From a virus (taxonomy: Duplodnaviria; Heunggongvirae; Uroviricota; Caudoviricetes), in the IMG/VR virus record IMGVR_UViG_2541047926_000006: 28,819 nucleotides of DNA. One strand, 5' to 3'. Of this stretch, positions 10,210 to 12,549 are shown piece by piece. The notes beneath the pieces are model-generated. The model saw only the letters and a list, made by a program, of their open reading frames with translations, was not told the origin of the DNA and ran no database searches. The translations under genes and the position numbers were made by a program. How positions within the stretch are numbered: position 1 is the stretch's first letter; each line of letters starts with the position of its first letter.

Positions 10210-10707
10210 CTACATCTGATATTTTTTATCTCTTAAAGATTCATAAATCCGTTGACAAGTCACTCCTGCGATGTAGCGTTTGTCAGCAATTTCAGCATAA
10301 AGCTGAGCTTCTGCTGCAATATCTCCGAGCATGTTGGTGAGCATTCCTTCGGCGGCTTTGGTTGTTTTGCCTCTGACGGCAGCGGCAAGATTTGCGGTAT
10401 GCTGCGCTGCGTCAAGGCGTATGGCATATTTTGTTGCTTCGGCACGCAGCTGGTTAACACTATCAGACAGATCAGCAGCCCTGGCAGAAATTTCAGCGGC
10501 TTTCTGTTGTGCATCTTTAACAGCCTCATCACGGGATATACTTCGCCCCTGTTCAATTATTCGAGCAGCAAATTGGACATTTACCTCTTGAGATAATTCG
10601 GCAGCATCACGCTCCGCCCATTTTTTTTGCCATCCTCTGTCGCTCCAGACATTACCTACGACAAATCCTACCAACACGAGCAAAATCACCGTGAATATCT
10701 GATTCAC
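10210..10707 (-). CDS. rzpQ: Rz-like inner-membrane spanin
   Basis: 165 aa with an N-terminal transmembrane segment and coiled-coil-like remainder. Start overlaps the endolysin stop (ATGA). Confidence 0.8.
10260..10514 (-). CDS. rzoQ: Rz1-like outer-membrane lipoprotein spanin, embedded in the +1 frame of Rz
   Basis: 84-aa product [23 protein letters not shown]... with lipobox L-T-S-C and a proline-rich mature part. Entirely inside the Rz ORF. Confidence 0.8.
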
Positions 10708-11237
10708 TGTTCTATCCCCCAGCAGGTTAATGCACTCTCCTGGTCACGACGAATAACCTGACCGTAACAATTATTTGAACGAATGCGGCAATCACGTCCA
10801 CCGTCCTTTATCCACCAGCGAATCGCCTCGCATGCGCCTTTACGATCACCGGCATTAAGCCGCTTATAAAACGTCGACGGAAAACACTTACCAGGGCCAA
10901 TGTTATAGGGACAGAATGACGCGATACCGGCTTTCTGTGGCTCGGTCAGTGGAACTTTTATATTGCGCTCCACCCATGCCAGCGCCTTATCCCGCTCAAT
11001 GGCGTTAACCTGGGCGCATTTTTCCTTCGACAGTTTCATTCCCGGAATAACAGGTTTACCGTCCACCATCGTTGCTCCCCGACAGATGGTCCATATGCCG
11101 GAGCCATCGCGGTATGCAGTGGTGTGATTCCCCTCTTTTTCATCCAGAAACTGATCGAGAATGTCGGGGGCAGGAGCACTGGCGGCAATCAGTGCCAGAA
11201 CAGCAGCCGACAGGCTGTATCTGATTTTTACGTTCAT
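10704..11237 (-). CDS. rrrQ: SAR-type endolysin (T4-lysozyme-like muramidase, GH24)
   Basis: 177 aa with an Ala/Ser-rich N-terminal hydrophobic segment ([16 protein letters not shown]) followed by a lysozyme catalytic region (E...D...T spacing), as in the phage 21 R protein. Confidence 0.9.
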
Positions 11238-11350
11238 GGATATTTATCAGGATTTATCGGCTTCAAATCCCCGGATATGTTAAATCTTACCTCACCAGTG
11301 ATGGGCACTGGCGGGAGGAGGATGTCAATCTGATAAACACAGAGGTGACT

Positions 11351-11611
11351 ATGGATTACACAAATCTACCAAAACAAACTTTTGCTGATTTAATCGCACT
11401 CAGGCAAGCAGTCGTAGCTCTAATCAACTTGTTGCCGGAGAAGGAAAAGGAATTAGTTAAAGCGCTTCTTAACAGAACTGCCGCCGATTTTTCATCATAT
11501 CCACTGACAGATGACCTTGCGGACCTTCCTGAATTAATTGCAGCGTCCGCCATTAAGCTTACTGAAGAGATTTACCCTCCTCAAAAATCTTCACAAAATT
11601 CCTGCGAGTAA
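11351..11611 (+). CDS. Hypothetical 86-aa protein, convergent with and overlapping the 3' end of the DUF1327-like gene
   Basis: ATG at 11351 preceded by AGAGG about 5 nt upstream. The product looks helical and protein-like. No family recognised, so it could be a spurious antisense ORF. Confidence 0.35.
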   Translation: MDYTNLPKQTFADLIALRQAVVALINLLPEKEKELVKALLNRTAADFSSYPLTDDLADLPELIAASAIKLTEEIYPPQKSSQNSCE

Positions 11612-12110
11612 CTTCAATGCAATAATCGTAAAACGCCGCAAACTGCTCATCGCGGCGTTTTTTTTCATCTTCAGAAGGAATCAGCACCGACAATTTTTTA
11701 TTCAGATCAGCGACGCTGCCCTCCAGTTTTTCAATGGGCGATTCAATATCATCTTTTTCTGACCGCAATGCCGTCGGTGGCGTCTTCAGAGAACCAGTAA
11801 TTCTTCCCGGTAGCTTTCCTTTGTAGGTTATCCACACATTCTGCGCCTCTAAAATTATGGGGCGCTTTTCCGGCGACTGCTCATCCCCTTCACATAACCC
11901 GGCAGCAACATCCAGGAAGACCTGTCTGATGCTCATTCTGGCTGCTGCCTCATAAAACTCCAGCGCGGCACCTTCAACACGGTCCAGCGAGATGTCCAGG
12001 TCAAAAATTTCACCGTCAAAGCGTTCTTTGTCCTGTAATGCTAAAGTTACCGTAACTTTATTCTCAAAATTGCGGATCCCTTTCACAATCAGTTCATAGT
12101 TTTGAGTCAT
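11559..12110 (-). CDS. ydfR: Uncharacterised protein inserted between pinholin and endolysin (ydfR position; DUF1327-like by recollection)
   Basis: 183-aa ORF between essQ and rrrQ on the same strand. Symbol assigned by position; I recall K-12 YdfR as shorter, so this may be a longer or intact form. Confidence 0.6.
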   Translation of the reverse strand: MTQNYELIVKGIRNFENKVTVTLALQDKERFDGEIFDLDISLDRVEGAALEFYEAAARMSIRQVFLDVAAGLCEGDEQSPEKRPIILEAQNVWITYKGKLPGRITGSLKTPPTALRSEKDDIESPIEKLEGSVADLNKKLSVLIPSEDEKKRRDEQFAAFYDYCIEVTRRNFVKIFEEGKSLQ

Positions 12111-12114
12111 TGAA

Positions 12115-12330
12115 TTACTCTCCTCTCGCAGCCTTACGCCTGTCTTCTTTAATCTTGAAATAAAGATTTGTCAGATACGTCAGCAGGCCAAAAACCAGGC
12201 TACCCAGCACACCGATTGCAGCCCACTGTGACGGAGTTACTTTATCGAGTAACTGCAATGCCCAGAAACCAGCATTACCCGCCGATGTGCCATAGGCAAC
12301 ACCTGTTGTTAACTTATCCATTGATTTCAT
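12115..12330 (-). CDS. essQ: Phage-21-type pinholin with dual start motif (MKSM...)
   Basis: 71 aa, [71 protein letters not shown], near-identical in pattern to S21 as I recall it. Start chosen at MKSM, not the 96-aa maximal ORF. Confidence 0.85.
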
Positions 12331-12549
12331 ATCCTCACCCCGATGTACACGGATGGTGCAATATGTTTGAAAAGATCGGAGTCTACGGGGTAGTTTTGAC
12401 AGCACACGTTGTTCTCAACGGCGCTAAAAAAACATACACATTAAAAATGTGGGTAATTATTTTGAAAGAAAGTCATATATAAAATAATAATACGAGAAAT
12501 GTTTTCATATTTAGTGTACTGTATACGGCCATTTATACAGGAAAAGCCT

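Follow-up and report, generated by a model that had tools for sequence, protein, structure and literature searches.

A 28,819-nucleotide stretch of viral DNA (Caudoviricetes; IMG/VR record IMGVR_UViG_2541047926_000006; here called the window) includes a lysis cassette from a Qin-like lambdoid prophage, composed of a pinholin S, a SAR endolysin R and the spanins Rz/Rz1, with a gene of the YdfR/DUF1327 family placed between S and R. We establish the identity of these genes, the family to which the spacer gene belongs, the layout of the cassette and its prevalence among sequenced genomes. As for the function of the 183-amino-acid spacer protein (ORF183), our best guess, which we infer for this variant and hold tentatively, is that it may be a late-expressed passenger that binds RNase E rather than a component of the lysis machinery.

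Organization of the lysis cassette

On the minus strand, the pinholin gene is followed by the 183-aa ORF, the SAR-type lysozyme and the Rz/Rz1 spanins (Table 1). A preliminary description, made from the sequence alone, had located the holin, the 183-aa ORF and the endolysin at these positions on a shared strand, which our analysis bears out; the holin end that it gave, 12405, belongs merely to the longest GTG-started ORF. The true starts are Met1 (12330), which yields a 71-aa antiholin form, and Met4 (12321), which yields a 68-aa holin form. Both lie in an MKSM motif (12330..12319) that matches the annotated S21-71/S21-68 starts, and this motif, the match to PF04971 (116.7 bits versus a cutoff of 26) and the 83% identity to S21-71 confirm the proposed S21-type dual-start pinholin. 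The protein is 100% identical to K-12 EssQ. Residues 8-27 consist to 60% of Gly, Ala, Ser or Thr and have a mean Kyte-Doolittle hydropathy of 0.40, as opposed to 1.44 for residues 36-57, and the holin is accordingly predicted to have two membrane segments, of which the first is weakly hydrophobic, as in class II pinholins.

TABLE 1. Features of the lysis cassette, in positions of the window
Feature	Position	Strand	Evidence
Rz-like i-spanin (RzpQ, DUF2514)	10210..10707	-	PF10721 E 3.6e-38; phrog_312
Embedded Rz1-like o-spanin lipoprotein (RzoQ), +1 frame	10260..10514	-	phrog_11621 E 3.4e-8
GH24 lysozyme, SAR-type N terminus (933W/RrrQ type)	10704..11237	-	PF00959 E 2.6e-24
Conserved leader (~50 nt) ahead of endolysin ATG	11238..11287	-	Locus comparison
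86-aa acidic ORF (ORF86), antisense to the late operon	11351..11611	+	phrog_2572 E 1.3e-53
Terminator-like hairpin: A-tract, 6-bp GC core stem (10 bp with A-T pairs), T8	11630..11665	.	Folding energies
YdfR/DUF1327-family 183-aa protein gene (ORF183)	11559..12110	-	PF07041 E 4.1e-42; phrog_2091
ORF183 helical tail, residues 113-183	11559..11774	-	
ORF183 conserved linker, residues 73-112	11775..11894	-	
ORF183 N-domain, residues 1-72	11895..12110	-	
Class II pinholin S (EssQ type)	12115..12330	-	PF04971 "P21 holin S" E 4.4e-34
Shine-Dalgarno AGAGGAGAG in final holin codons	12118..12126	-	Junctions of window, phage 21 and phage 434 compared; annotated RBSs

The endolysin matches PF00959 with 86.4 bits, has the catalytic triad E35-x8-D44-x5-T50 and is matched by the structure of R21 (3HDE, E 4e-16). 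Its identity is 90% with the endolysin of phage 933W, 93% with K-12 RrrQ and 34% with R21. Its N terminus is of SAR type, as had been proposed: the peptide MNVKIR, with the basic residues K4 and R6, precedes an 18-residue Ala/Ser-rich segment (56% Ala, Gly, Ser or Thr), whose hydropathy over 15 residues is 1.97 versus 2.2-2.4 for the corresponding segments of R21 and P1 Lyz. A Pro following ASA in this N terminus speaks against signal-peptidase cleavage. The enzyme is probably Sec-exported, and its release from the membrane by the pinholin or by depolarization is predicted; the 933W endolysin has been employed as a SAR endolysin (PMC9239132). In the ~50-nt leader before its ATG, no obvious Shine-Dalgarno sequence was found. 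This leader is near-identical in the window and in four of the compared loci (L003, L004, L006 and L011) and is missing from K-12 and from locus L008.

Downstream, the GTG start of rzpQ overlaps the endolysin stop, and RzpQ has an N-terminal membrane segment (residues 4-22, Kyte-Doolittle 2.34). The embedded RzoQ, with the lipobox LTSC, has coordinates transferred from K-12 rzoQ. The phage-21 type of the cassette is therefore confined to the holin, given the low identity of the endolysin to R21 and the DUF2514-type Rz, which is unrelated to Rz21. An Rfam scan of the cassette gave nothing above chance, and a GcvB match with an E value of 0.66 was disregarded. Three points had been overlooked in the preliminary description, namely, the 933W/RrrQ type of the endolysin, the antisense 86-aa ORF with its RBS and terminator hairpin, and the mosaicism of the spacer protein.

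The spacer gene in related phages and prophages

The spacer between holin and endolysin measures 877 nt and, besides the 183-aa gene, holds the plus-strand 86-aa ORF and the T-run hairpin. The 183-aa gene starts 4 nt past the holin stop, with its Shine-Dalgarno sequence, GAGAGGAG, in the final holin codons; it lies on the same strand, as described earlier, and is tightly coupled to the holin gene. Phages 21 and 434 resemble the window in their MKSM pinholin family, their Sec-exported SAR-type GH24 endolysin and the Shine-Dalgarno sequence that S carries at its 3' end, which serves the endolysin in these phages and the DUF1327 gene in the window. The adjacency of holin and endolysin genes reported for phage 21 is correct, since the two genes share 1 nt in this phage and likewise in phage 434. 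Phage 21 further differs from the window by its different SAR segment, its unrelated Rz genes and the lack of a DUF1327 gene. In 933W (the Stx2 phage of EDL933), whose S begins with MYQM, no gene separates S and R, and R begins 4 nt past the S stop, where the window has the start of the DUF1327 gene.

The intervening gene had initially been regarded as an insertion relative to phage 21. It is no peculiarity of the window in view of K-12, where Qin essQ-ydfR-rrrQ-rzpQ/rzoQ has the same gene order and orientation, and of the presence of DUF1327 DNA in 4319 of 5426 complete E. coli genomes (80%). The flanks of the K-12 Qin cassette (cspI, cspB, cspF and ynfU) match those of the window as well. 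K-12 YdfR is a 103-aa protein in which residues 1-68 are homologous to ORF183 and are followed by an unrelated tail abutting rrrQ; where the window has about 660 bp, comprising the linker, the tail, ORF86 and the endolysin leader, K-12 has a counterpart of merely 93 bp. The exact variant of the window is shared by about 300 genomes and by phage PhiR63_1 (PV340573), which has an identical layout at 98.3% DNA identity and contains both the 183-aa protein and ORF86. Phages PhiR5_1 and Stx2 phage 86 carry variants of 211 aa and 268 aa and then an antisense ORF. The depositors of these three phages label the proteins as hypothetical, YdfR-family or "DUF1823"; the last label, given to the ORF86 homologue of PhiR5_1, has no Pfam support.

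Among phage records with this holin type, 106 of 438 contain DUF1327, and Stx phages also share the holin-DUF1327-endolysin arrangement. In every Escherichia locus sampled, the DUF1327 gene starts 3-4 nt past the holin stop, and a 177-aa endolysin of the 933W type always comes next. As the layout recurs in genomes by the hundred and also in phages that have been sequenced, the arrangement is something other than a chance ORF. The preliminary description had considered that the ORF might prove to be a conserved part of this cassette type with a known role; it is such a conserved part, and it has no established role.

The layout is thus real but already catalogued: both the gene family with its Pfam entry and the placement between holin and endolysin are on record from K-12 and thousands of genomes. 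It carries little weight as a discovery but retains some interest as a target. Few uncharacterized late genes of E. coli and Stx prophages are as common as those of the YdfR family, their translation probably keeps step with that of the pinholin, and RNase E binding provides a testable lead. In addition, two small new observations could guide further work, namely, the modular tails of the proteins and the occurrence of the N-domain beside antisense ORFs in the tail modules of other genera.

Domain structure of the spacer protein

Profile searches confirmed the DUF1327 assignment suggested in the preliminary description: PF07041 matches residues 1-112 of the 183-aa protein with 142.8 bits against a cutoff of 25, and phrog_2091 covers all 183 of its 183 positions. 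No Pfam family beyond DUF1327 was found in the protein at E ≤ 0.01, hence neither DUF2730 (releasin) nor any lysis-regulator family, and an NCBIfam search of ORF183 and ORF86 gave no match. ORF183 has a pI of 4.9 and a maximum 19-residue Kyte-Doolittle value of 1.03, i.e., no hydrophobic segment. The product is therefore likely to be soluble and acidic, and also cytoplasmic, because it has no membrane segment or signal sequence.

In an AlphaFold2 model, the N-domain consists of three beta strands and a helix (pLDDT 86.8), whereas the tail is predicted as a helical hairpin with a pLDDT of 56-69. The N-domain folds confidently alone in this model and also exists in the form of stand-alone proteins of 72-76 aa, which together indicate an autonomous domain. 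Within the family, we observed tail variants with an in-frame 28-aa insertion and an in-frame 5-aa deletion, and the module combinations N+L, N+L+T, N+L+D, N+L+T+D and T+D (N, N-domain; L, linker; T, tail; D, a further module), with K-12 YdfR representing N joined to an unrelated tail. ORF183 is a mosaic of shuffled modules, and its helical tail appears to be swappable.

In a 99.9% identical genome, PGAP had called the gene a pseudogene with a missing C terminus. We reject this call, as the 183-codon frame is intact and the 183-position PHROG match runs end to end; diverged full-length homologues with in-frame insertions and deletions also speak against it.

RNase E as a candidate target

The sole experimental lead on the function of the family comes from K-12 YdfR and points to RNase E. 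The three roles suggested in the preliminary description (lysis modulator, superinfection exclusion and unrelated cargo) are without support; no defense model is matched, and there is no membrane segment. In a study of 2026, residues 1-72 of YdfR sufficed for an interaction with RNase E 1-597 in BACTH, Strep-YdfR co-purified Rne1-598 and RNA, full-length YdfR was positive only with Rne1-597, and overexpression altered few transcripts; these data stem from this single study and apply to the truncated K-12 variant under overproduction (PMC13232886). Over residues 1-72, ORF183 and K-12 YdfR are identical at 60 of 72 positions (83%), and by this likeness the N-domain of ORF183 would bind host RNase E in its N-terminal, catalytic half. 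This enzyme makes a plausible target, since a combined deficiency of RNase E and RNase G delays lysis by a lambdoid Stx2 phage and lowers its yield (PMC8443680). Direct binding of RNA by the N-domain is unlikely, considering that it is acidic, with a net charge of -5.5.

The DUF1327 gene takes over an RBS that lies in S near its 3' end and belongs to R in phages 21 and 434. In the mechanism that we tentatively favor, ORF183 would therefore be made from the Q-antiterminated late transcript simultaneously with the pinholin. The protein may then act on host or phage RNA processing as a late-expressed passenger and would have no structural share in forming the hole or degrading the wall. Examples of phage products that bind RNase E of the host or modify it are phiKZ Dip, T7 gp0.7 and T4 Srd, which YdfR resembles as a reported binder of the RNase E catalytic half.

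Alternatively, ORF183 could be a cytoplasmic accessory of lysis timing that tunes the time of membrane depolarization or the ease of endolysin release, a reading that we consider unlikely. It might do so by binding the basic cytoplasmic C-tail of S, like T4 RIII, or by binding the basic N-terminal peptide MNVKIR of R, much as Mu gp25 does with its anionic cytoplasmic domain. The antiholin RIII of T4 is a cytoplasmic non-holin protein that modulates holin triggering. There is a precedent in the releasin gp25 of Mu, which is not a holin and targets the basic N termini of SAR endolysins, including that of 933W (PMC9239132). Both are non-holin proteins, have acidic or cytoplasmic parts and modulate either the release of SAR endolysins or the triggering of holins, which is the likeness considered here for ORF183; gp25, however, has an N-terminal membrane segment and DUF2730, and ORF183 has neither and bears no sequence relationship to it. 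The acidity of ORF183 would fit a timing role, and the invariant start just past the holin stop in the Escherichia loci could reflect a functional tie to lysis. Furthermore, the Keio ydfR deletion appears in the lists of an envelope-defect screen (PMC3879167), for which a polar effect on rrrQ is an equally possible cause. Against such a role stand the lack of a membrane tether and of any match to a lysis-regulator family, as well as the absence of a growth defect upon ydfR overexpression. Moreover, S and R are adjacent in 933W, 21 and 434, which lyse without a DUF1327 gene, so lysis itself is independent of this gene. Distant homologues of 72-94 aa are located in tail-gene modules of Yersinia and Sodalis prophages with no holin nearby, which argues against an obligatory role in lysis. 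The RNase E reading, for its part, is weakened by a 213-aa protein that occupies the same S-R slot, shares the tail and lacks the DUF1327 N-domain, suggesting that the slot may matter more than the domain.

An antisense ORF and its terminator-like hairpin

ORF86, whose 3' end overlaps ORF183 by 53 nt, is annotated by PGAP as WP_001306174.1, has the sequence GAGGTG 5 nt upstream of its ATG, and is open in all five related loci. By codon-position and synonymous/non-synonymous counts, it could not be distinguished from a shadow ORF of 65 aa on the sense strand; with 3-5 synonymous versus 8 non-synonymous changes, there is no clear purifying selection, and only 18 protein clusters exist. A promoter/terminator scan found no sigma-70-like promoter upstream of ORF86. 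The same scanner missed the hairpin because of its 12-nt loop. This hairpin sits 19 nt past the ORF86 stop, within the ORF183 coding sequence, and folds with -14.6 kcal/mol on the plus strand and -19.4 kcal/mol on the minus strand. It is predicted to be strong as a terminator on the plus strand and weaker, with the tail UUUUAC, on the late-gene strand. Of the promoter and the terminator that a moron (an independent transcription unit inserted between phage genes) would have of its own, the terminator-like hairpin is thus present, and the scan gave no promoter; ORF86 is a putative, probably independent cargo gene. Antisense cargo genes such as cspF and ynfU are common elsewhere in the late region.

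An antisense ORF lies directly after the DUF1327 gene in 7 of 11 distinct contexts, including most of those of the distant tail-module homologues. In three tail-module insertions, at the junctions M-L, L-K and I-J (loci L017, L018 and L021), it is the sole antisense gene called per locus. The antisense ORFs mostly have SD-like sites, the convergent genes are separated by GC hairpins followed by T-runs, and every one of the ORFs matches some PHROG family; they are mutually unrelated, and variants without an antisense ORF occur. The N-domain remains conserved, down to an identity of about 25-30%, in Escherichia, Yersinia and Sodalis, with Y53-E54 invariant.

It is conceivable, with a low probability in our view, that the DUF1327 N-domain gene is the conserved half of an undescribed mobile two-gene unit, in which a variable small gene converges on it and both genes use one terminator. 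Such a unit would be found at late-gene junctions of enterobacterial lambdoid prophages (S-R in Escherichia; the tail junctions M-L, L-K and I-J in Yersinia, Sodalis and relatives), its product would target RNase E late, and its C-terminal modules would shuffle in Escherichia.

A different and quite improbable reading takes the DUF1327 gene and the convergent ORF86 as an inserted two-gene module that travels together under a shared terminator. Here the prophage would express the antisense gene as cargo, e.g., an exclusion or fitness factor, and the DUF1327 protein its late-phase counterpart or regulator. The 7 of 11 contexts, the solitary antisense genes at the three tail-module junctions, and the SD-like sites, hairpins and PHROG matches are in line with this proposal. 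It is opposed by the lack of relationship among the antisense ORFs, by the antisense-free variants, by the failure of the scan to find a promoter-like site for ORF86 and of the counts to tell this ORF from the shadow ORF, and by the general frequency of antisense cargo (cspF, ynfU) in the late region. A search with PADLOC models at E ≤ 0.1 against ORF183, ORF86, the holin and the endolysin, which gave no match, counts against it as well.

Conservation of the N-domain

Very doubtful is, lastly, the view that ORF183 is a passenger without a current function, the S-R junction being a recombination hot spot bounded by conserved sequence, at which prophages that are for the most part defective gather mosaic ORFs and let them decay. 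The extreme module mosaicism, pairwise non-synonymous changes at least as numerous as synonymous ones, the PGAP pseudogene call and the tiny size of the family (95 representatives among 1.84 billion proteins) would all be expected from it, but the N-domain is conserved across three genera with an invariant Y53-E54 and a confident fold, insertions and deletions stay in frame, the RBS is strong, and the gene is present in sequenced phages with recorded propagation hosts (PhiR63_1, PhiR5_1 and Stx2 phage 86).

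The lysis cassette and its holin

The window carries a complete lambdoid lysis cassette, in which the holin gene S, a 183-codon ORF (ORF183) and the endolysin gene R follow each other in that order on the minus strand; the preliminary description had already placed the three genes on one strand. The dual-start holin that it proposed was likewise borne out: the N-terminus reads MKSM, giving 71- and 68-residue products. The protein shows 83% identity to phage 21 S21-71 and has the same sequence as EssQ of E. coli K-12. The endolysin opens with two basic residues and a weakly hydrophobic, Ala/Ser-rich stretch; its sequence identity is 34% with R21, 90% with the endolysin of phage 933W and 93% with K-12 RrrQ. 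Since the 933W enzyme was used as a SAR endolysin in a study of Mu releasin (PMC9239132), this close homologue, together with the N-terminal composition, suggests that the window endolysin is of the SAR type, in agreement with the initial reading. On its 3′ side lies a DUF2514-type Rz gene, unrelated to Rz21 of phage 21, with an embedded Rz1 lipoprotein gene. The pinholin and SAR endolysin had been called phage-21-type; judging from these comparisons, the label fits the holin, which is the only truly phage-21-like part, but neither the endolysin nor Rz.

Coordinates of the cassette, its surroundings and the comparison loci (L numbers, own coordinates)
Feature	Coordinates	Strand	Remark
Lysis cassette	10210-12330	minus	lambdoid
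Holin gene S	12330 to 12115	minus	Pfam "P21 holin S" match, E 4.4e-34
ORF183	12110..11559	minus	starts 4 nt past holin stop codon
ORF86	11351..11611	plus	86 codons, antisense; GAGGTG (Shine-Dalgarno) 5 nt before ATG
Sense-strand ORF	11356-11553	minus	65 codons; starts 5 nt past ORF183 stop
Terminator-like hairpin	11630-11665		A-tract/GC-stem/T8; 19 nt past ORF86 stop, within ORF183 coding sequence
Endolysin upstream region	11238-11287	minus
Endolysin gene R	11237..10704	minus	GH24 lysozyme, E35-x8-D44-x5-T50 triad
cspI	9634-9849
ynfU	12550-12720
cspA thermoregulator match	13068-13460	minus	Rfam, 158.8 bits, over cspB leader
cspB	13084-13299
cspF	13600-13812
PGAP-annotated ORF183 part	L001 7576-7911		window 11775-12110
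213-aa protein	L029 1968-2609		Stx2a phage
Tail-module homologues	L015 3001-3219; L017 3001-3506; L018 3001-3821; L021 449-1001

A DUF1327 gene between holin and endolysin is a common state

The ribosome-binding site of ORF183 is a GAGAGGAG motif within the last holin codons. In phage 21, where the two lysis genes are indeed adjacent, and in phage 434, the endolysin gene overlaps S by one base and is itself served by this motif. The endolysin of the window is uncoupled from S; the ~50 nt that precede its ATG are conserved in several spacer variants and contain no recognisable Shine-Dalgarno sequence. A profile search of the ORF183 protein confirmed the family proposed earlier, DUF1327 (PF07041, residues 1-112, 142.8 bits where the cutoff is 25). 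The protein is acidic (pI 4.9), has no hydrophobic segment and matches none of the defence-system models.

The view that an inserted gene distinguishes this window did not survive the synteny comparison. The K-12 Qin prophage has the same order (essQ-ydfR-rrrQ-rzpQ), phage PhiR63_1 shows an identical arrangement at 98.3% identity, and DUF1327 core DNA occurs in 4319 of 5426 complete E. coli genomes, with up to 9 copies each. Thus, cassettes of this type very commonly carry a gene between S and R, a state that is already annotated and not specific to the window, and YdfR/DUF1327 in this place is known, the arrangement as well as the family. Among phage records with the window's holin type, 106 of 438 contain DUF1327; the tail-plus-ORF86 module is found in 364 genomes and the whole 2.3-kb layout in 202. 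The preliminary observation is confirmed, and its interpretation partly supported.

A mosaic Qin-like prophage, the window has relatives among sequenced temperate phages (PhiR42_1, HannyBb and mEp460, for example), and the neighbours of the cassette are cspI, cspB, cspF, ynfU, a Q antiterminator gene, relBE, hokD, terminase and portal genes. The three cold-shock paralogues and ynfU flank the cassette in both orientations, and the match to the cspA thermoregulator is strong.

Modular architecture of the family

Aligned YdfR/DUF1327 members, of which an exhaustive profile search returned only 95 representatives in 1.84 billion proteins, are built from four modules: N (residues 1-72), a conserved linker L (73-112), a helical tail T (113-183) and a separate domain D of about 150 residues, absent from the window protein. 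These combine as N+L (114-116 aa), N+L+T (183 aa and 211 aa), N+L+D (268 aa), N+L+T+D (296 aa), T+D without the DUF1327 domain (213 aa) and, in K-12, N with an unrelated tail (103 aa). At the sampled loci, every combination starts 3-4 nt past the holin stop and is followed by a 177-aa lysozyme. The post-holin slot is more strictly conserved than the DUF1327 domain. The 213-aa protein of the Stx2a phage occupies this slot without a DUF1327 domain, joining T to the C-terminal domain common to the 268-aa and 296-aa variants.

Module T is real coding sequence: its frame survives an insertion of 28 residues and a deletion of 5, and another protein contains it too. For the same reasons, the label "pseudogene, missing C-terminus" that PGAP gives the ORF183 gene in a genome 99.9% identical to the window was rejected and looks like an annotation artefact. 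There (locus L001), the annotation covers just the first 112 codons despite an intact 183-codon frame, and systematic mis-annotation of long YdfR variants is likely. The databases also have a few proteins of 173-187 aa (P0084, P0098 and P0110) with both holin and DUF1327 Pfam domains; these apparent holin-YdfR fusions probably stem from a frameshift or sequencing error where the two genes meet, 4 nt apart.

With an alignment extended by distant family members, AlphaFold2 gave a confident N-domain model (pLDDT 86.8) in which one helix packs against three antiparallel strands; structure searches returned weak and generic matches only.

Further ORFs in the spacer and convergent pairing in tail modules

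The S-R spacer of 877 nt holds more than one ORF. ORF86, which at its 3′ end shares 53 nt with ORF183, is recognised by PGAP and PHROGs and has only 18 protein clusters. Substitution patterns neither showed purifying selection on it nor separated it from the 65-codon ORF on the opposite strand; ORF86 is treated as a probable gene. The 65-codon ORF stays open in each of the five related loci; by composition it resembles a shadow of ORF86, and codon statistics do not decide between the two. On the late strand, the hairpin could insulate the endolysin from read-through in the absence of Q.

Distant stand-alone N-domain homologues (72-94 aa) come from Yersinia (by cluster names), Sodalis ligni and metagenomes. 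They lie outside lysis cassettes: each is on the late strand within a lambda-like tail-tip module, with positions before tail gene L and at M|L, L|K and I|J. A small opposite-strand ORF directly follows the homologue in four of the five fetched places, and these four amount to three distinct contexts, two L|K places being near-identical; the convergent genes are separated by GC hairpins, and in L017, L018 and L021 this ORF is the only antisense gene called. Together with the Escherichia convergent ORFs (ORF86, a 90-aa ORF and the 104-aa gp06), the pairing occurs in 7 of 11 distinct contexts. The DUF1327 gene and its convergent ORF may therefore form a two-gene inserted unit. The pairing may also be coincidence, since the late region is rich in cargo genes of both orientations. 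The antisense ORFs fall in different PHROG families, with no detectable relationship among them.

Possible function of the ORF183 protein

Because S and R are adjacent in phages 933W, 21 and 434, lysis itself does not depend on ORF183. The sole functional study of YdfR that we found in the literature concerns the K-12 protein (PMC13232886). It reports that two-hybrid screens show an interaction of residues 1-72 with the catalytic N-terminal half of RNase E, that Rne1-598 and DNase-resistant nucleic acid co-purify with Strep-YdfR, and that overproduction is non-toxic and alters few transcripts. ORF183 is identical to these residues at 60 of 72 positions, and RNase E and G together affect the lysis timing and yield of a lambdoid Stx phage (PMC8443680). 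The best-supported reading, which we put forward tentatively, is that the ORF183 product would bind RNase E as a cytoplasmic passenger, expressed late along with the pinholin. By analogy with Mu releasin or T4 RIII, the main rival casts it as a putative lysis-timing accessory; the unvarying place of the gene beside S and the acidity of its product are consistent with this, whereas the missing membrane tether and the location of the distant homologues in tail modules argue against it. RNase E binding now gives a testable lead on ORF183 function. The Keio ydfR deletion is among the hits of an envelope-defect screen (PMC3879167, supplement); as ydfR lies just upstream of a SAR endolysin gene, this may stem from polarity of the resistance cassette and not from YdfR function.
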